Program-made: the position numbers and the translations under genes
The notes under the pieces: generated by a model
The model's database searches: none
Told to the model about the DNA's origin: nothing
Seen by the model: the letters and a program-made list of their open reading frames with translations, nothing else
Assembly: GCA_021776275.1 (NCBI GenBank)
Contig: JAJFGH010000074.1
Span: 1 to 53,937 of the forward strand
Source of the DNA: Alphaproteobacteria bacterium
GTDB lineage: Bacteria; Pseudomonadota; Alphaproteobacteria; GCA-2746255
Length of the DNA: 53,937 nt
Reading direction: 5' to 3'
In this document: piece by piece, positions 13,943 to 23,884 of the stretch
Numbering within the stretch: the stretch's first letter is position 1
Layout of the letters: every line of letters starts with the position of its first letter

Positions 13943-14152
13943 CGAAACCTCGTCGCTTGCGAGCGCCCAAAGGCGGGCACTCCCTCCCTCTAATTTCACC
14001 AGAAAGGCTGTGCCGACAAGGGCGTTTCATAACCTTTTGGGATGTCAGAAGAATTTTTGAGAAACCTGGGCTGCATGCGTCGCTTTTGAGCGGGCCAGCC
14101 TTGCGCTATCTTTAGAATTGTCCCCACAATAGCAACGCGACAAGGAGGAGCC

Positions 14153-16339
14153 GTGTTACCTCGCATCCATTATGCGTCACCTCGCTGTCTTAAATTGCTC
14201 CTTGCGATGCTTGCCATCGCTTGTGCCACAATTTTTGTTTCCCGGTCAGCCTTGGCAGAAACCCGCTACGCCCTTTTGGTGGGCGTGAACGATTATGAAA
14301 GCCTACCGGCTTATCTGCAATTAAAAGGCCCGCGGAACGACGTGGAATTGGTTGCCGGCGTCCTTCAGGAAAATGGGTTTGAAGAATCCCACATCACCCT
14401 CCTGACGGACGGGCTGGAGGGCGCAAAAAAACCAACGCGCGCTGCTATTCTCTCCGAGCTTGGAAAGCTGGCCGCCAACGTTAAGAAAAAAGATTTTGTC
14501 TATCTCCATTTTTCCGGCCATGGCTCGCAACAGCCCATAAACCCTACGGCCAAAGGCACCGCCTGGGAGACGGACGGCCTTGATGAAATTTTTCTGCCAG
14601 GTGACATCGGCAAATGGGACAACGCCATCGGCAAGGTTGCGCGTTCGATCACGGATGACGAGCTGGGCGCTGCAATCACGAAAATTCGCAATCGCGGCGC
14701 TTTCGTTTGGGCGGTTTTCGATGCCTGCCACTCGGGAACCATGACGCGCGGCCTGCCCTCGGGTGAAGAAGCCATGCGTTTACGAAAAGTAGCGCCATCC
14801 AGCCTTGCCATTCCGGATTCGCTCTTCGAATCCGACATATCCTCTCTGCCGTCTTCGGCTAGGGAGGAAGGGCCAGGGTTTATGGAGGAAGCGGGTGGCT
14901 ACGTTGCCTTCTTTGCCGTGCAGACGACGGAAACGACACCGGAAATGCGCTTGCCGGCAGGCCATCCGGAACGCCGTTCCCAAGGTTTATTCACCTTCAC
15001 GGTGATGCAGGCGCTGGCCACGGACCCAGACGTGACCTATCGGCAACTTGGAGAGCGTGTGCTGCAGATTTATGCGTCCCAAAACCGCCGCAATCATACG
15101 CCCCTGTTCGAAGGAAGCGCACTGGACGCCCCGCTCTTCGGTAGCCGCCCGCAGCGCCAGGCGCGGCAATGGAAGGCCAAACGGAAAGACGATCTCCTCT
15201 ACATTGCCGCCGGCAGCCTTCATCAATTGGCGGAAGGGTCCATTTTCGCCATCGTAGCGAAGGCCAATTCGAGCCAGGACGCGGTTTTAGGCTATGTCCG
15301 CCTTGAAAAAGCGAACGTGTTGCAAAGCAGGCTTCTTCCCATTGCCCATCGGGGCGTCCCGGCCTTGGCATCAACGGACATCCCGGATCACGCTTATGCC
15401 CGTCTGGCATCCCAGCGCTTCACGCCCGGCATTCGAATAGCCAAGCCCCCTGCATCCACACCACCGTCACCGATAGACCGTGAAGTTGCATCGCTCCTCG
15501 ATGCGCTTGCCAAGGCATTGGGGAAAAAGGAGGACGGCATCGCCATCACGTGGGTTCCGCCGAACCAGATGGCGGATATCCGCTTGGCGATCGGAGAATC
15601 GCCGGACACCGCCGGCCCCGTTCTCTGGCTGTTGCCGCCGTCGAGCGAAATCGTAACGGAGGGTGCCGGCAAAACCCATTCCATCGCCCTGAACGCAGGC
15701 CGGGATGCCATCTACGAAAAGCTGGAGACAAGCTTTATGCGGATGGCCAAAATGTTCAACCTCTTGAAGCTTGCAAGCCAACTTTCCACAAGCCGGACCG
15801 CCAAAAAAATCGAGCTTTCGGCGAAAGTCACACGGGCGGGTACGGGAAAAACGGAACGCTATTTTCCTTCCGACATTCCCTATTTCCAGGCCAGCGATGT
15901 TGTCGAATTTGCAATCGCGAACCCAGGCCCCCTGCCTTTGGATCTGACCCTTCTGTTCGTCGATACCGATTTTGGCATCACGCCCCTTTTCCCCACCGAA
16001 GCGGGCGAAATCAACCGCATCGAAGCAGGGGGATTCTACACATTGCAAACCGAGGTAAATGCCGAGACGGTCGGCCTGGAACGCCTGATCGTAATCGCCG
16101 TCGAGGCCGAGGCGAACGCGCCGCTTGTTGAGTTCACTTTCCTTGCACAAGCGAGCCTTCCGCGCACGCGCGGGAGGAAGTCGAATGATTCCGCCACGCG
16201 TCCAAATGCCGAATTGGAAGCCATGTTCCGTCACGCGGGTTTCAACCCCCCACGAACGCGCGGACTGACTCCAGAGCGATCAACGTCGGAACGGGCCGGC
16301 ATGCGGATCTTCAGCTGGCAGACCTTGCCGCCGAAATAA
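14153..16339 (+). CDS. Secreted caspase-family (peptidase C14) protein with a C-terminal DUF4384-like domain
   Basis: Signal peptide, YALLVGVNDY, catalytic dyad contexts LHFSGHG and FDACHSG. The C-terminal segment ASDVVEFAIANPGPLPLDLTLLFVDTDFGITPLFP resembles DUF4384. Confidence 0.9.
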   Translation: MLPRIHYASPRCLKLLLAMLAIACATIFVSRSALAETRYALLVGVNDYESLPAYLQLKGPRNDVELVAGVLQENGFEESHITLLTDGLEGAKKPTRAAILSELGKLAANVKKKDFVYLHFSGHGSQQPINPTAKGTAWETDGLDEIFLPGDIGKWDNAIGKVARSITDDELGAAITKIRNRGAFVWAVFDACHSGTMTRGLPSGEEAMRLRKVAPSSLAIPDSLFESDISSLPSSAREEGPGFMEEAGGYVAFFAVQTTETTPEMRLPAGHPERRSQGLFTFTVMQALATDPDVTYRQLGERVLQIYASQNRRNHTPLFEGSALDAPLFGSRPQRQARQWKAKRKDDLLYIAAGSLHQLAEGSIFAIVAKANSSQDAVLGYVRLEKANVLQSRLLPIAHRGVPALASTDIPDHAYARLASQRFTPGIRIAKPPASTPPSPIDREVASLLDALAKALGKKEDGIAITWVPPNQMADIRLAIGESPDTAGPVLWLLPPSSEIVTEGAGKTHSIALNAGRDAIYEKLETSFMRMAKMFNLLKLASQLSTSRTAKKIELSAKVTRAGTGKTERYFPSDIPYFQASDVVEFAIANPGPLPLDLTLLFVDTDFGITPLFPTEAGEINRIEAGGFYTLQTEVNAETVGLERLIVIAVEAEANAPLVEFTFLAQASLPRTRGRKSNDSATRPNAELEAMFRHAGFNPPRTRGLTPERSTSERAGMRIFSWQTLPPK

Positions 16340-16356
16340 CGAAAAGACGGCGCGTC

Positions 16357-19239
16357 TTATTCCGCAGGCTTTAGAAGACTGGAAGGAAGAACGAGACGAA
16401 AGCCCGAAGGCACGGCCAACGGCCGTCGCGTCGTTGGGGTTTGTTTTCCGCCCGTTAATTCGAAGACCCGCTCGGACAGATAGACATCCAACATCGAGAC
16501 CGTGATGTAAGGCTTCTTTCGATAGGCGGCCTCTCCCCCAATGGCCTCCAGCAAGGCTTCCGTAAAGGCGCCGTTTCGCCAAACCTCGCTTTCCAATGAA
16601 AGCTGTTCGCTAGCCGAGGAAGCAAAAACCACAACGCCATATTCCGGGCTGGCAAGGTCGTTGACAACGCGGTTGACGTCTACGGGCGGACGATCCCCTC
16701 CCCAAACCCCGGCGGCATGGCAGGTATCGACGAAAAGGAACGTTCTGGCAGGAATGCTGGCCAGGGCGTCCCGGATTTTTTCATACGGCATCGCCGTTTC
16801 TTTCAAGCGTTCCGGATCCACTTTAGTCGGCAGGAAAAAATAATTTCCCTTTGCATCGTCAACGCCATGACCGGCAAAAAAGACGATGGCAACGTCGCCT
16901 GGCTGCGGCGCCGTTTGAATCCATTCGAGCCCTGCAAAAATATTTTCGAGAGATGCCTTATCATCCTGAAGAAGCTTAGTCTCTACGGAATGGTAAAGGC
17001 CTCCTTTTTGAAGCTTGGCGATCGCGGTGAAGTCGCGGGCATCCTGGTTCGCATAATTGAGCCGCAGCGCAGGATTTTCATAAGCACTTATCCCGACCGC
17101 CAATACGTAGAGCGTTGGCTTTCCGCCAGCCGCATTCCTGCCGGTCAAGGCGTAGGAAGCCGCTTCGCTATAGACGCCGTGACGATTCTTGGCGACAACC
17201 GAGATGCCCCTGGCATTTTTTGGAATTGTGACGTCAAGGCGATGCTGGGTGCCATCTGCCGTCGCCGCGATCTTTCCCTCGATGTCGGCGATCGGCCTGC
17301 CGTCCGCCATAATGCGGATTTCTGCCGCAGGCTCTCCGTTTGCCGAACGCAGGGAATAGCGAAGCGTAACCTGATCCGGGCCCGCCGCCTTCTCGGTGGC
17401 CTCGATCGAGATGACCGGAGGCAAGATCTCGGCAATGCCGCGTTGCCGTTGCTTGCGGCCGGCAGCGCGGTTGGCGGCGGCCAGCGCCTTGCCTTCGTCC
17501 AGAAAAGCCAGAACCTGGCCGACGACGTCCGGGCGGTAAAGGTCATCGCGAAAACGCGAGACGGAAAAGAAATCCGCGGCGTACCCCTTGCCCCGGTTCA
17601 CATGCCAACCGATGAGGTCGTCCCCGCCAGCGGAAGCCATGTAATAGCCCGAAGGCGTCCACGCCACCCACCGCTTGTCCCGGTGCGGGAAAAGGGCAAG
17701 CAGTTCTTCGCCATCGGCCACGCGATACCAACGGATGGTGCCATCCCCAAGGGCAAGAATGGCAAGCTTGCCGCTTTGCGCAACGTTGACGGCCCAGACC
17801 TGCTCGGGCGTTTGCACGTTCCAAATCTCTGCGCCCTTGCGGTCAAAATGGCGCAGGCGCCAACGGGTGCCCAACAGAAAGCTGTCGCCATCCGGCAGAA
17901 TGGCGAGGCTAAAGGCCCGTTCATGGCGCTTGAGGGGAAGCGGACGGCCCTGAAGGGTCGGCTCGCGGGAATCCCGCCAGTTTTCAATGACGAGCCCCTC
18001 GCCCTCGGTGACCGGCGGCAAGAAGCCATCTCCAGCCGCGGGCGGATCGCGCGTCAAAGCGCGCGCGGCAATCGAAAAACGCGCCGGCGACTGCCCCCAA
18101 CGATCAAAGCCGAAAAAAACGGTGCCGCCATCGGGGGAAACGAGAAACCGGTCGTCCAGATTTTGAAACTTCGCGATCGACGTCGTTTGCGTAAAAACCC
18201 TTCGGAAAGAAGAGTCGAAAGCGCCAAAGGCCGGGTCGTCACTTGCATAAAAAACGCCACCGTCTTTCCGCGCAAGCAGGTGCATCACCATATCTTGCGA
18301 AGCCGCTCTCTCAAGGCGCCGGCCTTTCCCGCTTTTGTCCCAGCGAAGAAGAAGCTTGCGACCGCCTTTCTCATATTTACCGGCGGCGAAAAGAAAACGG
18401 CCATCCAGAGACCAGGCAACCCGAGCTAAATTTCCCTTCTCGATGCCATTTATATCGGGCGTAAAAAGAAGCGCGAGATCGCGCGCGGAGAACACCTCTA
18501 CAAGCGGCTCATCATACCCCACGGCGATTTTCTCTCCATCCGGCGAAAAGCTCGCCATGACGGGGATTCGCGCCGGCAAGGACGGCGTCTTTGCGATCCG
18601 GCGAAAGGACGCATCGTAAAGCCGGACATGACCATCCAGAGAAGCCGTGACCAATCGGCCATCCTGGGCGAACTCGGCCGAAAGCGTATCGTCCTCGTAA
18701 TCCTTGTCTTCGGCGACAAGCCGAAAATCCTTTGCGTCATAGATTCGAAGGCCATGCTCCGACTTGAAAGTGACCGCCAGATAGTTGCCGTCTTGCGAAA
18801 AAGCCAAATGCAGGGGCCGAAGCGGCAAGTCGCCGATTCGACGGATCATCTGACCGGAAGCCGTCTCAAAGAGATAAAGGCTCCAGTCCTCGCCCCAGCC
18901 ACCGGTCCAACCACCCGCGACGATACGCTTGCCATCGGGAGAAACGGCCAGCGCATAGAGGGCGCCCTCCTTGCCGGCATCAATGGGCATGCGGATGACC
19001 CGGATCAGCTCGCCTTTCGGCAGCGCCCAAACCCGGATGGTCTTGTCATAAGAGGACGTAACGAGGATGCGGTTGGCGGCGTCCACGCCAAAGCGATTGA
19101 TCGAGGCCGTGTGGGTACCCGCCTCGATCCGGAGAATGGGGCTTTCCGGCGGAGCGGTACCTGCCGCTACAGCTTGACGCGCGCTGGAACCCATCGCCAA
19201 AAGGGCGCAAAAAACGCTTATAAAAGTAATGAATCTCAC
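16357..19239 (-). CDS. Secreted WD40-repeat protein with a C-terminal caspase (peptidase C14) domain
   Basis: 960 aa with a signal peptide. Multiple WD-like blades (SSYDKTIRVWAL, SLDGHVRLYD, LGDGTIRWYRV). C-terminal LYVLAVGISAYEN, FFAGHG and FVDTCHAAG. Confidence 0.9.
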   Translation of the reverse strand: MRFITFISVFCALLAMGSSARQAVAAGTAPPESPILRIEAGTHTASINRFGVDAANRILVTSSYDKTIRVWALPKGELIRVIRMPIDAGKEGALYALAVSPDGKRIVAGGWTGGWGEDWSLYLFETASGQMIRRIGDLPLRPLHLAFSQDGNYLAVTFKSEHGLRIYDAKDFRLVAEDKDYEDDTLSAEFAQDGRLVTASLDGHVRLYDASFRRIAKTPSLPARIPVMASFSPDGEKIAVGYDEPLVEVFSARDLALLFTPDINGIEKGNLARVAWSLDGRFLFAAGKYEKGGRKLLLRWDKSGKGRRLERAASQDMVMHLLARKDGGVFYASDDPAFGAFDSSFRRVFTQTTSIAKFQNLDDRFLVSPDGGTVFFGFDRWGQSPARFSIAARALTRDPPAAGDGFLPPVTEGEGLVIENWRDSREPTLQGRPLPLKRHERAFSLAILPDGDSFLLGTRWRLRHFDRKGAEIWNVQTPEQVWAVNVAQSGKLAILALGDGTIRWYRVADGEELLALFPHRDKRWVAWTPSGYYMASAGGDDLIGWHVNRGKGYAADFFSVSRFRDDLYRPDVVGQVLAFLDEGKALAAANRAAGRKQRQRGIAEILPPVISIEATEKAAGPDQVTLRYSLRSANGEPAAEIRIMADGRPIADIEGKIAATADGTQHRLDVTIPKNARGISVVAKNRHGVYSEAASYALTGRNAAGGKPTLYVLAVGISAYENPALRLNYANQDARDFTAIAKLQKGGLYHSVETKLLQDDKASLENIFAGLEWIQTAPQPGDVAIVFFAGHGVDDAKGNYFFLPTKVDPERLKETAMPYEKIRDALASIPARTFLFVDTCHAAGVWGGDRPPVDVNRVVNDLASPEYGVVVFASSASEQLSLESEVWRNGAFTEALLEAIGGEAAYRKKPYITVSMLDVYLSERVFELTGGKQTPTTRRPLAVPSGFRLVLPSSLLKPAE

Positions 19240-19290
19240 AAATTGATAGCCATTTCAGTAGGTTAGGCAAATCGCCCTTTAGGGATACCC

Positions 19291-19320
19291 TTGACTTAAC
19301 CGGAAAGTTGGCATCAAAAT
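19291..19320 (+). promoter_or_regulatory. Candidate sigma70-type promoter of the peptide/radical SAM operon
   Basis: TTGACT (19291-19296), an 18-nt spacer, then CAAAAT (19315-19320), about 40 nt upstream of the first small ORF. Prediction by eye only. Confidence 0.3.
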
Positions 19321-19359
19321 CAATAGCCTGATTTTCATCGTCTCTTTGGGGGAACGGTC

Positions 19360-19506
19360 ATGAAAACGTCCAAATTGCTCGCCTGTTTTTTCGTCATCGC
19401 TTTCGCATTCGCCTCTTTCGCACCGGTCGTGATGCTTGGTGGCAACGCCCATGCGAGCGCCGGAACCGGCGAGGCCTGCGAAGCCGGCCCGGATGGGGAA
19501 TGCTAG
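19360..19506 (+). CDS. Small secreted Cys-containing peptide (48 aa, not in ORF track)
   Basis: GGGGGA ribosome-binding site 6-7 nt upstream of ATG 19360. Translates MKTSKLLACFFVIAFAFASFAPVVMLGGNAHA/SAGTGEACEAGPDGEC, a canonical Sec signal with an AHA cleavage site and a 16-aa mature part with a CX7C pair. TAG at 19504-19506. Confidence 0.5.
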   Translation: MKTSKLLACFFVIAFAFASFAPVVMLGGNAHASAGTGEACEAGPDGEC

Positions 19507-19553
19507 CGGCACACCAAATTGCTGCGAGCTTTCTAGCCCCTACCTTTCGGAGG

Positions 19554-20249
19554 ATGGCCGCGATGTTTTCGAAGCAGCCAAGATTCTTTCTTTTTGCGTT
19601 CAGCGCAGCGTTTCTTTTGACCTTTGCCGCACCCCAAGCCGCGGAAAAGGCGTCCAATGTCGAAGTGGAAACGCTGCGAAAGGTCAACCTGGCGCGCCAG
19701 ATCATTCAGCTTGGGATCGAAGACAAGGATCCCTTCGCCCTGATCGTCGCCGCCCGGATTTTCCGAGAAATCCCGCCAATTGAAGGGCCGCCGCCGAAGA
19801 AGATCAGCGGCAATTTGGCTGAGGACCGATCCACCGGCTCCGAGCAGATGTCCCTCGTTCTCGATCACTCGGTCGGCAATCTTTTGAAGAAGGCGCGGGA
19901 ATTTGCCGGTGACCGCCAGGACATTCTCGCCTTGATCGAGGACATTGCCGCCATGTCCCCCCGCGGCGCAGGCGGTGTCATACATCTGGATCAAATTCTT
20001 TCCGGCAAGACGGATGCCTATGAAATTACCTATGAGGGGAAAAAGCCCGCCGCTCTTTATATCGAAGCGCAGGACAACGTCGATTTGGACCTGCGCATCG
20101 AAGACAAGGCGGGAAAGAAAATCTGCGAGGACATGCGCCAGGGCGTTACCTCGCTTTGCGAATGGGACCCCGAAGAGACGGCGCCATTCGTCATCAAAAT
20201 CATCAACACAGACGACACACCAACCGAATACATTCTGTTGACGAATTAG
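19554..20249 (+). CDS. Secreted hypothetical protein, C-terminal beta-sandwich (pre-peptidase C-terminal-like) region
   Basis: ORF 19500..20249. Start is probably ATG 19554 or 19563, next to GGAGG. Signal peptide FFLFAFSAAFLLTFAAPQA. The C-terminus ALYIEAQDNVDLDLRIEDKAGKKICED...CEWD resembles PPC domains. Confidence 0.7.
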   Translation: MAAMFSKQPRFFLFAFSAAFLLTFAAPQAAEKASNVEVETLRKVNLARQIIQLGIEDKDPFALIVAARIFREIPPIEGPPPKKISGNLAEDRSTGSEQMSLVLDHSVGNLLKKAREFAGDRQDILALIEDIAAMSPRGAGGVIHLDQILSGKTDAYEITYEGKKPAALYIEAQDNVDLDLRIEDKAGKKICEDMRQGVTSLCEWDPEETAPFVIKIINTDDTPTEYILLTN

Positions 20250-20267
20250 GCCGTTGACGATGGGGGC

Positions 20268-20492
20268 ATGAGACAAATGACAGCGCGCCTACCTTTTAGA
20301 AAACGAACCATTCAGAAAGCTTCCCGCTGGACATTGGCGCTGGTGAGCGCCTTCGGCCTTGGCGCGATTTCCACGCCGCCCGCCATGGCCGCCGAAAGTG
20401 AAAAACCAATCGGCCCGATCGCATCCGATGCCGGGGCAGAAATGTTGGCTCAAACCAGCTGCGGCTGCGCCGTGACCGGGGTGCGGGGGTAA
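20268..20492 (+). CDS. Candidate RiPP precursor peptide A1 (signal-peptide-like leader, core ...EMLAQTSCGCAVTGVRG)
   Basis: 71-74 aa (ATG 20268 or 20277). Paralog of A2. Differences between the copies are concentrated at synonymous third positions in this frame. Located immediately upstream of the radical SAM gene. Confidence 0.65.
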   Translation: MRQMTARLPFRKRTIQKASRWTLALVSAFGLGAISTPPAMAAESEKPIGPIASDAGAEMLAQTSCGCAVTGVRG

Positions 20493-20505
20493 AAGGAGTA
20501 CGAGC

Positions 20506-20709
20506 TTGCCATTGAGAAAACGCACGATCCGAAAAGCCGCCCATTGGGCCCTGGCGTTGATGGGCGCCTTTGGCCTTGGCGCTTCTCCCACATCCACCAT
20601 GGCCGCCAAGGCGGAAAGCTCCCCCTTGCCGACAGCCCCCGATGCCGAGGCGGAAATGCTGGCCCAGAATTGTTGCAGCACCACCACCGTGACCGGAGTG
20701 CGGGGTTAG
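20506..20709 (+). CDS. Candidate RiPP precursor peptide A2 (core ...EMLAQNCCSTTTVTGVRG)
   Basis: TTG start 7 nt after an AAGGAG ribosome-binding site. 67 aa. Shares the RKRTI-K...W-LAL--AFGLGA N-region and the EMLAQ...VTGVRG C-terminus with A1. Confidence 0.65.
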   Translation: MPLRKRTIRKAAHWALALMGAFGLGASPTSTMAAKAESSPLPTAPDAEAEMLAQNCCSTTTVTGVRG

Positions 20710-20742
20710 GGAAACCGAACCCAGGCACCCGCCCATACGCCG

Positions 20743-22512
20743 TTGCGAATTCTTCGTATCCTCCCTCCCGGTCGCTTTCCGACGGTCGTCCACGACCCAG
20801 GCCGTTGGCTGGACCGTCTCGCCACGGATCCCGGCATCGAGGTCCTCTCCTACAGCTTGAACCATGCCTGGTGGCGTGTCCTCTGTTCGCCCGCCGTCTG
20901 GAAGGCCGTGCTCGCCCCCCTCTCCGCGACCCAGCGCCTGCGCAGACGTCTCGAATGGTCGGCCGCGGATTTTGAAGCAAAGGCAGGCACCAAAGCCGCC
21001 GCCGAGGCGCTTGCGAATTTCTACCGGCCGGAAACCTATGCCAATCGGGAAGCCTATTTTACGGCCGTCATGGCCCTTGCCAGGCACGTGGAGGCCTTAA
21101 ACGGCGCGCAAGATGAATTGACGTTTTCCCTACAGCATGGGGTCCTAGCGCATGGGCTGAATTATCGGGCAAGCGCGGAACTGGTCCGGTACGCAAACCG
21201 TGACACGCTGCTTGCGCGTTCGATGGTGGCGGCCCTCGAAGACTGTCCGGAAGCGGTGGATCTGCTTTGCCTCTCCGCCAACTCACCGTTTGATTTTCTG
21301 ACGGCGCTTATCGCCGCCCGCCTTCTTCGCGAGCGCCATCCGCGTCTTCACATATGTCTCACCGATCATGGTTATGAGAATTTCTCCCTGCAGCCGCATC
21401 TCGATCGCCTCCGCCAAGCCGGTACGCTGGACACGATTTTCGACACGGTGATCGAATCGCGGGACGAGCGGGACGTCATTTTGCCGGCGCTAGCCCAGCG
21501 GATAGCGGCCCAAAAACCCATCCGCGGTTTCTTGCGGAAAACCGAATTCCCAGAAGCTCCAGCGGCTTCCTCCGCACAAGCCTTGCCCGCCCCTCTTGTG
21601 CCGACCTTCTCAAGCGAACCGGTGCTGTGGACGCGCATTAGCCAACGGCGCTGTTATTGGAGCCGCTGCACGTTCTGCACGCAAAATTCAAAATATGATG
21701 ACCCGCGGGTGCCTACGAAGTCCGAAATTGCCGGCGCTTTGGATCGCATTCAGGCACAAATCACCGCCGGTTATCGGAACCTGCATTTCTCGGACGAAGC
21801 CGTATCGCCGGCGCTTCTCCGCCTTTTCAGCGAAGGCATCCTGGAGCGTGGCCTTTCTTTTCGCTGGGGATGCCGGTGCAAGCTTGACCCCTCGCAGACG
21901 CCCGAGCTGTTTCGTCTTGCCCGCGAGGCGGGGTGCTACGAAATCATCTTCGGGCTTGAGAGCATCTCGCCGCGCGTTCAAAAATTGATGGACAAGCATG
22001 TGGAGGGATTGGATCAAGAGCGGATTGCCGAAATTTTTGGCGCCGTCCACGGGGCGGGGATTGCCCTTTTCATCAATTTGATCGCCGGCTTCCCAGGTGA
22101 TACGCCCGAGGAAACGACGGCATCCGTGGCGTTCCTGATCGACACGTGTCAAAATTTCGAAAACACAACCTATGTTTTGAACCCCTTCGGGCTTTTCCCC
22201 GCGACGCCGATCATGGACAACCCCGCCGCCTTCGGCGTTGTTCCCATTGAGGCGGCAGGCGATATGGTGTCGGCCTATGGCTACGATCTGGACCCAAAAA
22301 TCCGCGACGCCACCTTGGCAGCCGCCGCGGCCATGCCCGAGATGAAAGCGCGCCTGAACGCCGCGTTTGGCTGGGATCGGCTGGGCCTTGGCGCAACCCT
22401 TGAGACGGTGCAGGCGCTTTATTTCGAAATGGGTCATGGCGCCCTTTTCAAGGCCATGCCCCATAACCCATTGGCAAATTTTGCCGGAAGACCCGATCGG
22501 CGCGCCTCATGA
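20743..22512 (+). CDS. Radical SAM protein with an N-terminal B12-binding-like domain and atypical CX4CX2C cluster motif
   Basis: 589 aa. RRCYWSRCTFCTQ at nt 21652-21678 (Cys304, Cys309, Cys312). The downstream region (GCYEIIFGLES, INLIAGFPGDT) is typical of class-B-like radical SAM cores. No C-terminal Cys-rich SPASM/twitch region. Confidence 0.88.
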   Translation: MRILRILPPGRFPTVVHDPGRWLDRLATDPGIEVLSYSLNHAWWRVLCSPAVWKAVLAPLSATQRLRRRLEWSAADFEAKAGTKAAAEALANFYRPETYANREAYFTAVMALARHVEALNGAQDELTFSLQHGVLAHGLNYRASAELVRYANRDTLLARSMVAALEDCPEAVDLLCLSANSPFDFLTALIAARLLRERHPRLHICLTDHGYENFSLQPHLDRLRQAGTLDTIFDTVIESRDERDVILPALAQRIAAQKPIRGFLRKTEFPEAPAASSAQALPAPLVPTFSSEPVLWTRISQRRCYWSRCTFCTQNSKYDDPRVPTKSEIAGALDRIQAQITAGYRNLHFSDEAVSPALLRLFSEGILERGLSFRWGCRCKLDPSQTPELFRLAREAGCYEIIFGLESISPRVQKLMDKHVEGLDQERIAEIFGAVHGAGIALFINLIAGFPGDTPEETTASVAFLIDTCQNFENTTYVLNPFGLFPATPIMDNPAAFGVVPIEAAGDMVSAYGYDLDPKIRDATLAAAAAMPEMKARLNAAFGWDRLGLGATLETVQALYFEMGHGALFKAMPHNPLANFAGRPDRRAS

Positions 22513-23414
22513 CGACGGTCTTTCTCACCGGCGCTTCCGGCCAGCTTGGCCAAGCGGTGGCAGGCGAGTTGCTGGCCCGGGGCCATGAGGTGGCGGCGAT
22601 GGTGCGCCGGCCCGTTTTTCCCAAGGGTTGTCGCCCGGTTCTCGGCACGCTCGAAGACGTCGGCCAATTGGCCCATGAGATAGCCAAGGCCGACGCCATC
22701 GTCCATGTCGCATCGGCACGCAGCAACAACCGGGAAGAGGTGGTTCAGAAGGACATCCTTGGCACTGGGCATCTTCTCGATGCCTGGGCGCGAGGAAACT
22801 TCGTCTATGCCAGCAGCCAGACGGTTTACGGCGTGCCCCAAGGCGACCTTACCGAGGCCGCCCCCTTGCAACCGGTCGTCTGGTACGACCTTGGAAAAAT
22901 CTGCAACGAATTTCAAATCGCAATGGCGGCGGAAACGGGCAATCGTGGCGCCGGCCTTTCCCTTCGCATGGCCGTCATGTTTGGCCCCGTTGCAAAAAGC
23001 AAAGGCCCGCCGCAATTTCACGAGATGATTTACGAGGAATGCCAAAAAGGCAGCGCGTTTCTCCTGGATTCGGAGGAGGCGCTTGAAACCTACGGCACGT
23101 CCTTCATCGGCGATCGCGACTTGGCACGCGCCATCGCCGATTCTATCAGCCTTACCGAGACCGGCCCCTACAACATCGCCGGGCCTTTCTGCAGCTGGAA
23201 GGAATTGATTGAAACCATCGACCGATTTGCCGGCACGCGGTCGAAATTCATCTTTCGGAAAGGCGCCGTGCCAAAGCCTGGGGAATTCCGCTTGCCGCAA
23301 TCGCGCTCGTTTATCAATTCACAAAAATTCGACGCGGCAACGGGCTTTTGCGCAGAACAAACTTTGGAAGAACTGATTGAGCGGTTTGTCCAATTTCGCA
23401 GCGACTCTAAATAA
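22509..23414 (+). CDS. NAD(P)-dependent epimerase/dehydratase family (extended SDR) protein
   Basis: TGASGQLGQAVAGELLARGHEV Rossmann motif and a YDLGK (YxxxK) catalytic motif. ATGA overlap with the radical SAM stop. Confidence 0.9.
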   Translation: MTTVFLTGASGQLGQAVAGELLARGHEVAAMVRRPVFPKGCRPVLGTLEDVGQLAHEIAKADAIVHVASARSNNREEVVQKDILGTGHLLDAWARGNFVYASSQTVYGVPQGDLTEAAPLQPVVWYDLGKICNEFQIAMAAETGNRGAGLSLRMAVMFGPVAKSKGPPQFHEMIYEECQKGSAFLLDSEEALETYGTSFIGDRDLARAIADSISLTETGPYNIAGPFCSWKELIETIDRFAGTRSKFIFRKGAVPKPGEFRLPQSRSFINSQKFDAATGFCAEQTLEELIERFVQFRSDSK

Positions 23415-23442
23415 AAAGGCCCGCGCAAAGCGCGGGCCCTTT
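23415..23442. terminator. Strong bidirectional rho-independent terminator
   Basis: AAAAGGCCCGCGC-AAA-GCGCGGGCCCTTT. Separates the SDR gene (+) from cspA (-). Confidence 0.85.
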
Positions 23443-23466: not shown

Positions 23467-23676
23467 TTAGTCGGCGAGCTTCAAATTGCCGGCAAAGGTT
23501 TTACCATTCTGCCCGCTCTCAAGCTCATACTCGACCTGCTGACCTTCATTGAGGCCCGGCAGTCCAGCACGCTCGACCGCTGAAACATGGACGAAGACAT
23601 CCTTCGATCCATCTTCTGGCGTAATAAACCCATATCCTTTGACAGGGTTGAACCATTTCACGGTTCCAGTACTCAT
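23467..23676 (-). CDS. cspA: Cold-shock protein (CspA family)
   Basis: [34 protein letters not shown]... contains the RNP1/RNP2 motifs. Start at 23676 after an AAGAAGGAA ribosome-binding site. Confidence 0.95.
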
Positions 23677-23884
23677 TTGACTTATTCCTTCTTTAATTGT
23701 CATAGCCGCCCGCACGTTACGCGTAGGCGCGTCCTCGTTAAAAAATTCCTGGGGTATAGCAGCTAGGTCGGCTTGACAAAGCAGGATACGTCCGGGTCTT
23801 CGAAGACGAAGAGGATGATATAGGGCGAAGGCCACAAAATTTCAAAGAATTTGTAAAAACCCCTTGTAAATCAGGGGGGATAGG

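Follow-up and report, generated by a model that had tools for sequence, protein, structure and literature searches.

Bacterial homologues of caspases are common, and discussion of them has centred on cytoplasmic roles in cell death. We have analysed a stretch of DNA of 53,937 nucleotides from an alphaproteobacterium (assembly GCA_021776275.1, contig JAJFGH010000074.1; here called the window) that encodes a pair of predicted exported caspase-family (C14) proteins, casA and casB, next to a small exported protein, sec249, and a peptide operon. The gene for casA lies at 14153-16339 on the plus strand and that for casB at 16357-19239 on the minus strand; they are convergent, tail to tail, and 17 nucleotides (16340-16356) separate their stop codons. 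On the other side of casB a divergent intergenic region of 120 nucleotides (19240-19359) leads to pep48 (19360-19506, plus strand), the first open reading frame (ORF) of the peptide group, which encodes a small secreted acidic C-X7-C peptide. It is followed by sec249 (19563-20249, plus strand) and by the peptide-modifying part of the locus (20268-23414, plus strand), comprising two GVRG-tailed precursors, A1 and A2, a B12-type radical SAM enzyme and an SDR. All of these genes belong to an accessory island (13961-23409) that is present as a single block of 9.4 kb. An earlier note on this DNA had described the convergent pair of exported C14 proteins, their intact His/Cys dyads, the short gap between their stop codons and the distance of about 120 nucleotides from the casB start (19239) to the first peptide ORF (19360), and these descriptions were confirmed by the ORFs, the PF00656 matches, the signal peptides and the alignments reported below. 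The locus may offer a clue to the substrates of exported bacterial caspases.

Two exported C14 proteins

The casA product (728 residues, GTG start) is predicted from Pfam, its homologues and an AlphaFold2 model to be an exported C14 peptidase of the metacaspase-like type whose C-terminal part includes a DUF4384-like sandwich, and it matches PF00656 with 61.6 bits (gathering score 21.4). A signal peptide (residues 1-35, with cleavage predicted between SALA and ET; 14153-14257, plus strand) was read from the translation as a hydrophobic segment, and the sequence GGAGGA stands ahead of the GTG start. In each of the 27 aligned homologues the N-terminus is hydrophobic and precedes a conserved (H/Y/F)AL(L/I/V)(V/I)G strand. 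The catalytic domain (14261-15127, plus strand) contains H123 (14519-14521) in the context HFSGHG and C192 (14726-14728) in the context FDACHSG. Both residues are invariant in the 27 homologues and, in an alignment with yeast Yca1, match its catalytic His and Cys; the C-to-A mutant entry of Yca1, 4f6p, differs exactly at the Cys column. Two aspartates, D63 and D190, are also invariant in these homologues and correspond to the N-D and D-x-C-H motifs in the same alignment. The model (predicted local distance difference test score, pLDDT, 72.6) matches AtMC4, AtMC9 and Yca1 (E 5e-9 to 4e-7; template modelling (TM) score on the target 0.45-0.62). Homologues of the full-length type number 554 and come mostly from Proteobacteria.

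In the casA model the catalytic domain is succeeded by small domains of the beta and alpha/beta types and then by a C-terminal beta-sandwich (residues ~554-651; 15812-16105, plus strand). Residues 335-728 of casA itself gave no match to PF14326 even at E<=10, and it is because homologues match this family at the equivalent place that we consider the 'DUF4384-like' label for the modelled sandwich fair, if indirectly supported. The homologues concerned (P0158, P0174, P0178 and P0181) are 39-41% identical to casA, and two of them pass the 27-bit cut-off (29.2 and 27.3 bits) while the other two fall just below. Of the domain labels in the earlier note, C14 in both proteins and WD40 in casB were obtained directly from Pfam, whereas DUF4384 was recovered only by way of these homologues. 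The sandwich is followed by a disordered loop (residues 673-711, pLDDT <50; 16160-16285, plus strand) with two conserved T-R-G motifs at R673 and R703, and a final strand (residues 715-724) comes after it. Both motifs are nearly invariant in the 27 homologues (T672 in 23, R673 in 26 and G674 in 24; T702 in 22, R703 in all 27 and G704 in 25).

The casB product (960 residues, GTG start) is predicted to be an exported protein that combines WD40 propellers with a C14 domain at its C-terminus, and it has matches to PF00656 (50.6 bits; gathering score 21.4) and to WD40 PF00400 (71.8 bits; cut-off 27). Its signal peptide (residues 1-25, with cleavage predicted between AVA and AG; 19165-19239, minus strand) requires translation from the GTG at 19239. 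In the public gene call the start is placed 15 residues downstream, at M16, giving a protein of 945 residues and dropping the signal peptide. We have accepted the GTG as the probable start because homologues have signal-like N-termini (six of the six that were read, ahead of a conserved PILRIE(T/A)G motif) and because the orthologue in L259, a related locus on a 15-kb contig from another sample, aligns from residue 1 with 70.7% identity. The WD40 beta-propeller region (residues ~36-545; 17605-19134, minus strand) is delimited by Pfam together with propeller-family and PDB matches at residues 42-290 and 440-545, and a Pfam search of the linker for any domain returned only weak WD40 matches. In the C14 domain (16423-17106, minus strand), H791 (16867-16869, in FFAGHG) and C840 (16720-16722, in VDTCHAAG) are invariant in 18 homologues, as are the aspartates D733 and D838. 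The assignment of this dyad relies on Pfam and on family invariance, because a phmmer search of the caspase domain against the PDB found only a match with E=0.38 that covered the His half. Homologues of casB number more than 3700, many of them named 'caspase family protein', and a relative is encoded by no fewer than 574 species genomes, from Nitrospirota, Desulfobacterota, Acidobacteriota, Proteobacteria and other phyla.

From the published structures of MCA2 and Yca1, we take the two aspartates of each protein (D63/D190 in casA and D733/D838 in casB) to be residues of the S1 pocket. Orthocaspases and metacaspases cut after Arg or Lys (PMC6426788, PMC9622860), and the conservation of the S1 aspartates makes the same specificity plausible for casA and casB. 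Export of both proteins is predicted from sequence and from the conservation of signal-like N-termini in each family. In a survey of prokaryotic metacaspases, WD40 was the commonest partner domain and N-terminal helices were read as probable signal peptides; for exported WD40-caspases, this literature provides in silico catalogues only (PMC3501461). Our search of the literature brought up neither experimental studies of exported proteins of the casA or casB type nor a report of a physiological substrate for any exported bacterial caspase. A whole-genome scan of the assembly (1.70 Mb, 89% complete) detected exactly two C14 genes, casA and casB. A cytoplasmic abortive-infection role was considered and is unlikely for exported proteins; PADLOC returned a match to its generic 'caspase' model only, with no defence-system context.

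The partner protein sec249 and the neighbourhoods of casA and casB

The product of sec249 has 228 residues, is predicted to be exported and was modelled by AlphaFold2 (pLDDT 80.7) as a helical bundle, an eight-residue coil and a jelly roll. The fold of the C-terminal domain resembles the PPC, collagen-binding, GOLD and subtilase P-type jelly rolls (E 1e-6 to 1e-4; TM score on the target 0.6-0.8). Pfam holds no model of the whole protein and gave no match for the window protein; among 24 relatives, two match PF04151 (best E=1e-4). The coil sits between two confidently modelled domains and contains R134-G135 (19962-19967). This linker column is basic in all 24 aligned sequences (R in 18, K in 6) and is followed by an invariant Gly (24/24), then any residue, Gly and usually Pro. 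The resulting [R/K]-G motif resembles the conserved T-R-G loops of casA. A profile search at E<=1e-30 identified at least 766 representatives of the sec249 family (clusters at 50% identity), most of them of 210-250 residues; the gene is single copy in this genome.

Gene neighbourhoods were examined in 80 casA-centred loci from species genomes, with neighbours counted within 10 kb, and in the 80 species-genome loci most similar to casB; gene calls in these comparative loci came from our own ORF scans. Homologues of sec249 adjoin casA relatives in 27 of the 80 casA loci, usually within 200 bp and on the same strand. Co-occurrence was also examined in an even set of 401 genomes of the same class, of which six carried casA and seven sec249; both were present in five, always adjacent, and neither in 393. 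This gave a Fisher p=1.5e-9, to be read with the reservation that kin are not independent and that three of the five joint genomes belong to one family. These data identify sec249 as a conserved partner of casA. The earlier note had counted this 228-residue secreted protein with the peptide operon, and the gene content of that operon is corrected here, since sec249 belongs with the caspases.

Tandem short forms of sec249, of 128-143 residues, were observed beside casA relatives in three loci (L033:7404-8793, L040:8892-9308 and L096:7972-8846). They keep the signal peptide and the helical N-terminal domain, which runs out in K(S/T)K(G), and after this comes a hypervariable tail of 12-22 residues rich in Tyr and other aromatic residues. 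In sequence, these short forms resemble precursor peptides whose leader is folded.

The pairing of the two caspases was found to recur in variant forms. WD40-caspases lie near casA relatives in 19 of the 80 casA loci, and in five of these 19 they are close relatives of casB; the tail-to-tail arrangement with a gap of less than 25 nucleotides is present in the window, L259, L087 and L093. Around casB relatives, a small exported DUF4384 protein (PF14326, 77.5 bits) directly adjoins the WD40-caspase in seven of 80 loci, upstream of it in five of the seven, and another exported caspase is nearby in a further 10, the single member scanned giving a weak DUF4384 match. In all, DUF4384 proteins or caspase-DUF4384 fusions are found beside casB relatives in 17 of 80 loci. 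The casA/casB pair is a variant of this recurrent, widespread and unstudied theme, in which an exported WD40-caspase is joined by a DUF4384-bearing partner; here the partner is itself a caspase.

Short secreted peptides with two Cys residues are encoded divergently from casB relatives in six loci (L259:9227-9559, L263:6605-6857, L025:12408-12536, L264:7624-7758, L297:7691-7864 and L298:298-465). Among them are two paralogues of pep48 (56-58% identity) at the same place in L259. Their motifs include CPPKC twice, a C-terminal C-X7-C twice, and also CC. By a crude filter, 6 of 82 loci carried a divergent Cys-peptide against about 1.4 expected (p ~0.003), with one of the six looking spurious. The divergent casB/peptide arrangement, which the earlier note had pointed out, is thus conserved in the sub-clade nearest the window. 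One member, L263, has the order sec249-casA-(216 aa)-casB, then two Cys-peptides and a terminator, and no radical SAM gene on the contig. The peptides of L263 (EECCTTTDK) resemble the core of A2 in the window (NCCSTTT), without the GVRG tail. The 216-residue protein between casA and casB (L263:2985-3635, minus strand) is exported and has no family match.

Other genes also recur near casA relatives, namely those for extracytoplasmic function (ECF) sigma factors (22 of 80 loci), putative anti-sigma factors (13), TPR-CHAT proteins (20) and HtrA-like proteases (17). In many casA relatives (e.g. L020, L021, L031, L044 and L072) the neighbourhood consists of an ECF sigma factor, a putative anti-sigma factor, an HtrA-like Trypsin_2-PDZ protease, sec249, casA and a TPR-CHAT protein. 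Such neighbourhoods suggest an envelope proteolytic cascade under ECF control.

The peptide operon and the proposed function of the module

The caspases are physically linked to the peptide operon, as the earlier note supposed. In two genomes of the same genus (G004 and G003), DNA matching the window up to 13960 and from 23410 onwards lies on one contig, only 171 and 350 bp apart, so the stretch from casA through the SDR gene is one indel of 9.4 kb; a search of five same-genus genomes detected no island gene. L259 carries this block again, its gene order and orientation unchanged, with two pep48-like ORFs and two GVRG precursors. Protein identities between the window and L259 are 60% for casA, 71% for casB, 56-58% for pep48, 75% for sec249, ~41% for A1/A2, 70% for the radical SAM enzyme and 77% for the SDR. 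In L259 the block is flanked by ppk/ppx/DUF179 and lipocalin genes and thus stands on a different backbone. As regards a close relationship of the two hosts, this genome lacks a counterpart of the L259 ppk, and the ppx of L259 is matched only in part, at 28% identity. A third association was seen in L001, from a betaproteobacterial metagenome-assembled genome, where a sec249 paralogue lies within the radical SAM operon, directly before the precursor gene, and the genome carries casA and a second sec249 on another contig. All three radical SAM loci that contain sec249 accompany casA, in the same block (window and L259) or in the same genome (L001).

The caspases and sec249 are co-inherited with the peptide operon as one island, on two backbones. 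We consider it somewhat likelier than even (a probability of roughly 0.55) that casA, casB and sec249 constitute an Arg/Lys-specific protease module acting in the periplasm or beyond, with sec249 as its likely substrate. In this scheme, casA and casB would be active Sec-exported cysteine endopeptidases of the metacaspase/orthocaspase type that form one extracytoplasmic module with sec249. Both enzymes would be exported as zymogens, for which the signal peptides and dyads are in place. casA might then mature by cutting its own disordered T-R-G loops, and would cut sec249 at the basic [R/K]-G linker, so parting the helical N-terminal domain from the PPC-like C-terminal domain; the conservation of the linker and the gene linkage are consistent with this step. 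More speculatively, a protein or a peptide may dock on the WD40 propellers of casB and thereby gate or aim the caspase domain, the divergent Cys-peptides being candidate ligands. In this genome casA, casB and sec249 were gained or lost together with the operon for Sec-exported GVRG peptides and their radical SAM enzyme, all within a single island of 9.4 kb. Joint use of the two systems in this lineage is probable, whereas any action of the caspases on A1 or A2 is speculative.

Several observations weigh against this interpretation. No sec249 lies within 10 kb of casA in 53 of the 80 casA loci, and because many of these loci hold genes for ECF sigma factors, TPR-CHAT or HtrA-like proteins, the casA family may serve signalling and not the processing of pro-proteins. 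A general tie of casB to casA or sec249 was rejected, as neither gene was near the casB relatives in any of the 80 casB-centred loci, where these relatives mostly stand alone. The signal peptide of casB hangs on a GTG start without a clear ribosome-binding site. Both the cleavage of sec249 and the autoprocessing of casA are inferred from motifs only. Finally, the window and L259 may reflect one transfer or fusion event and not two independent associations.

A more elaborate form of the module hypothesis is offered tentatively. The sec249 family may be a new class of exported, caspase-processed pro-proteins in which the helical domain would serve as a 'leader' recognized by casA, with a cut at [R/K]-G releasing a variable C-terminal cargo. 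In the island of the window this route would be coupled to the Sec-exported radical SAM peptides, and casB would sense the divergent Cys-peptides by means of its WD40 propellers. The cargo would be the PPC-like domain in the window and a hypervariable, Tyr/aromatic-rich peptide of 12-22 residues in L033, L040 and L096. If so, caspases would act in the bacterial envelope as enzymes both of peptide maturation and of signalling.

The caspase module and the peptide/radical SAM operon could, alternatively, be functionally unrelated cargo that happens to share an island. Each part is far commoner without the other, a single fusion event could account for both joint occurrences, and the insertion site is a variable spot by a cold-shock gene (csp) and a split tRNA-Lys. 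We nevertheless think this unlikely, as gene order, orientation and tight spacing have been kept at 60-77% protein identity on two backbones, and sec249 stands directly before the precursor genes in both the window and L259. The sec249 paralogue inside the radical SAM operon of L001, in a genome with casA and a second sec249 elsewhere, and the presence of casA with each of the three sec249-bearing radical SAM loci argue in the same direction.

The earlier note had instead proposed that the caspases are the maturation proteases of A1 and A2, cutting after the Arg of VTGVRG or at basic residues behind the signal-like region. This idea draws on the inheritance of caspases and operon as one indel and as one conserved block in L259, on a plausible P1 specificity for Arg/Lys, and on the R-G ending of the tail, which is like the T-R-G and [R/K]-G motifs. 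We regard it as improbable, and as the least likely of the readings that link the two systems, because A1 and A2 have ordinary signal-peptidase sites (between AMA and AE), which leave no need for a leader protease, and because the GVRG tail is kept in systems that lack the caspases and so is not there for a caspase. The radical SAM family is rare (56 proteins in a search of 5.8 billion sequences), and neither casA nor casB lay within 10 kb of any of the 25 further loci of the family, 10 of which have GVRG-type tails; a casA relative was found in only one of 15 radical SAM-bearing genomes, on another contig. Cleavage after the Arg of the tail would, moreover, take off the last Gly only, and L263 combines casA, casB and sec249 with Cys-peptides on a contig without a radical SAM gene. 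A family-wide link between caspases and radical SAM enzymes was accordingly rejected, and the caspases are not the general maturation protease of the GVRG-tail/radical SAM peptide family. The co-occurrence that the note had made a test of its reading thus fails at the scale of the family; in the local lineage the link is strong, as the indel and L259 attest.

It is highly improbable that the pair is a device for signalling by regulated proteolysis in the envelope, in which a site-1-type cleavage frees an ECF sigma factor or switches a receptor, since, for all the ECF, anti-sigma, TPR-CHAT and HtrA-like genes near casA relatives and the precedent suggested for the periplasmic TPR-CHAT protein DdvA (PMC11506125), genes for a sigma factor, an anti-sigma factor, a cyclase or CHASE2 are missing from the island and the genome (89% complete) has only two C14 genes and no match to a CHAT protein.

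Related systems and the borders of the island

The closest known enzymes are the metacaspases and orthocaspases (MEROPS C14B; Yca1, PDB 4F6O; MCA2 of T. brucei; AtMC4/MC9; MaOC1 of Microcystis), with which casA and casB share the caspase-hemoglobinase fold (seen for casA in the model), a His-Cys dyad and two S1 aspartates, and autoprocessing loops are likely in both groups (PMC6426788, PMC9622860). Unlike these enzymes, casA and casB are predicted to be Sec-exported, casA adds ~400 C-terminal residues that include the DUF4384-like sandwich, and the locus also encodes an exported protein, sec249, as their dedicated partner. In casB two WD40 propeller regions precede the caspase domain, whereas in the usual cytoplasmic caspase-NACHT-WD40 proteins the WD40 repeats come after it (PMC3501461). 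The 17 casB loci with exported WD40-caspase and DUF4384 pairs have a casB of the same family and architecture and the same kind of DUF4384-bearing exported partner; the window differs in that the partner is a full caspase, that sec249 is a third partner and that the set shares one island with a radical SAM peptide operon, to which it is fused. The island has neither a CHASE2 cyclase nor an OmpA gene.

Two further comparisons concern function. DdvA of Myxococcus xanthus, a periplasmic TPR-CHAT anti-sigma factor (PMC11506125), likewise has a periplasmic caspase-fold domain for which regulated cleavage has been proposed, and casA relatives are often found beside ECF sigma and TPR-CHAT genes. casA and casB differ from it in being soluble exported proteins and not a transmembrane anti-sigma factor, and in lying in an island without a sigma/anti-sigma pair, in a genome without CHAT. 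The C-terminal domain of sec249 has the same jelly-roll fold as the corresponding domains of pro-protein convertases and subtilases (furin, Kex2 and Tk-SP) and the PPC domain of secreted bacterial peptidases (PF04151), and as in convertases a basic-residue processing site, in sec249 a candidate one, lies between two domains. In sec249, by contrast, the jelly roll is carried by a separate small protein without a protease domain, and the presumed protease is a caspase and not a subtilase.

The locus is a compact test case, with two C14 genes, one small partner that has a single invariant basic site, exported peptides and a transferable block of 9.4 kb. If casA does cut sec249, this would be the first enzyme-substrate pair for a large family of exported bacterial caspases, and it would supply a function for the sec249 family, that is, for at least 766 clusters (50% identity) of uncharacterised proteins.

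Within the divergent region between casB and pep48, a promoter-like site (19291-19320, plus strand) reaches a consensus match of only 9/12, and a scan of the locus for promoters and terminators did no better than shuffles. At the borders of the island we found no flanking or attachment-site-like repeats of 7 bp or more and no shift in composition, the G+C content of the island being that of the rest of the window; no integrase lies within the island. The left flank (up to 13960) is a methyltransferase gene and the right flank (from 23410) consists of a terminator, a strong hairpin at 23418-23438, and a minus-strand cold-shock protein gene (23467-23679, PF00313) of which related genomes contain several paralogues. 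In G001 and G005, two of the five relatives, the island is replaced by ~12-13 kb of different DNA that fills the interval from the methyltransferase to the csp/tRNA-Lys region, and the insertion site next to csp and the split tRNA-Lys seems to be a variable hotspot. Elsewhere in the radical SAM family, two tandem paralogues, 46% and 43% identical to the enzyme of the window, stand side by side in L101:10001-13637.

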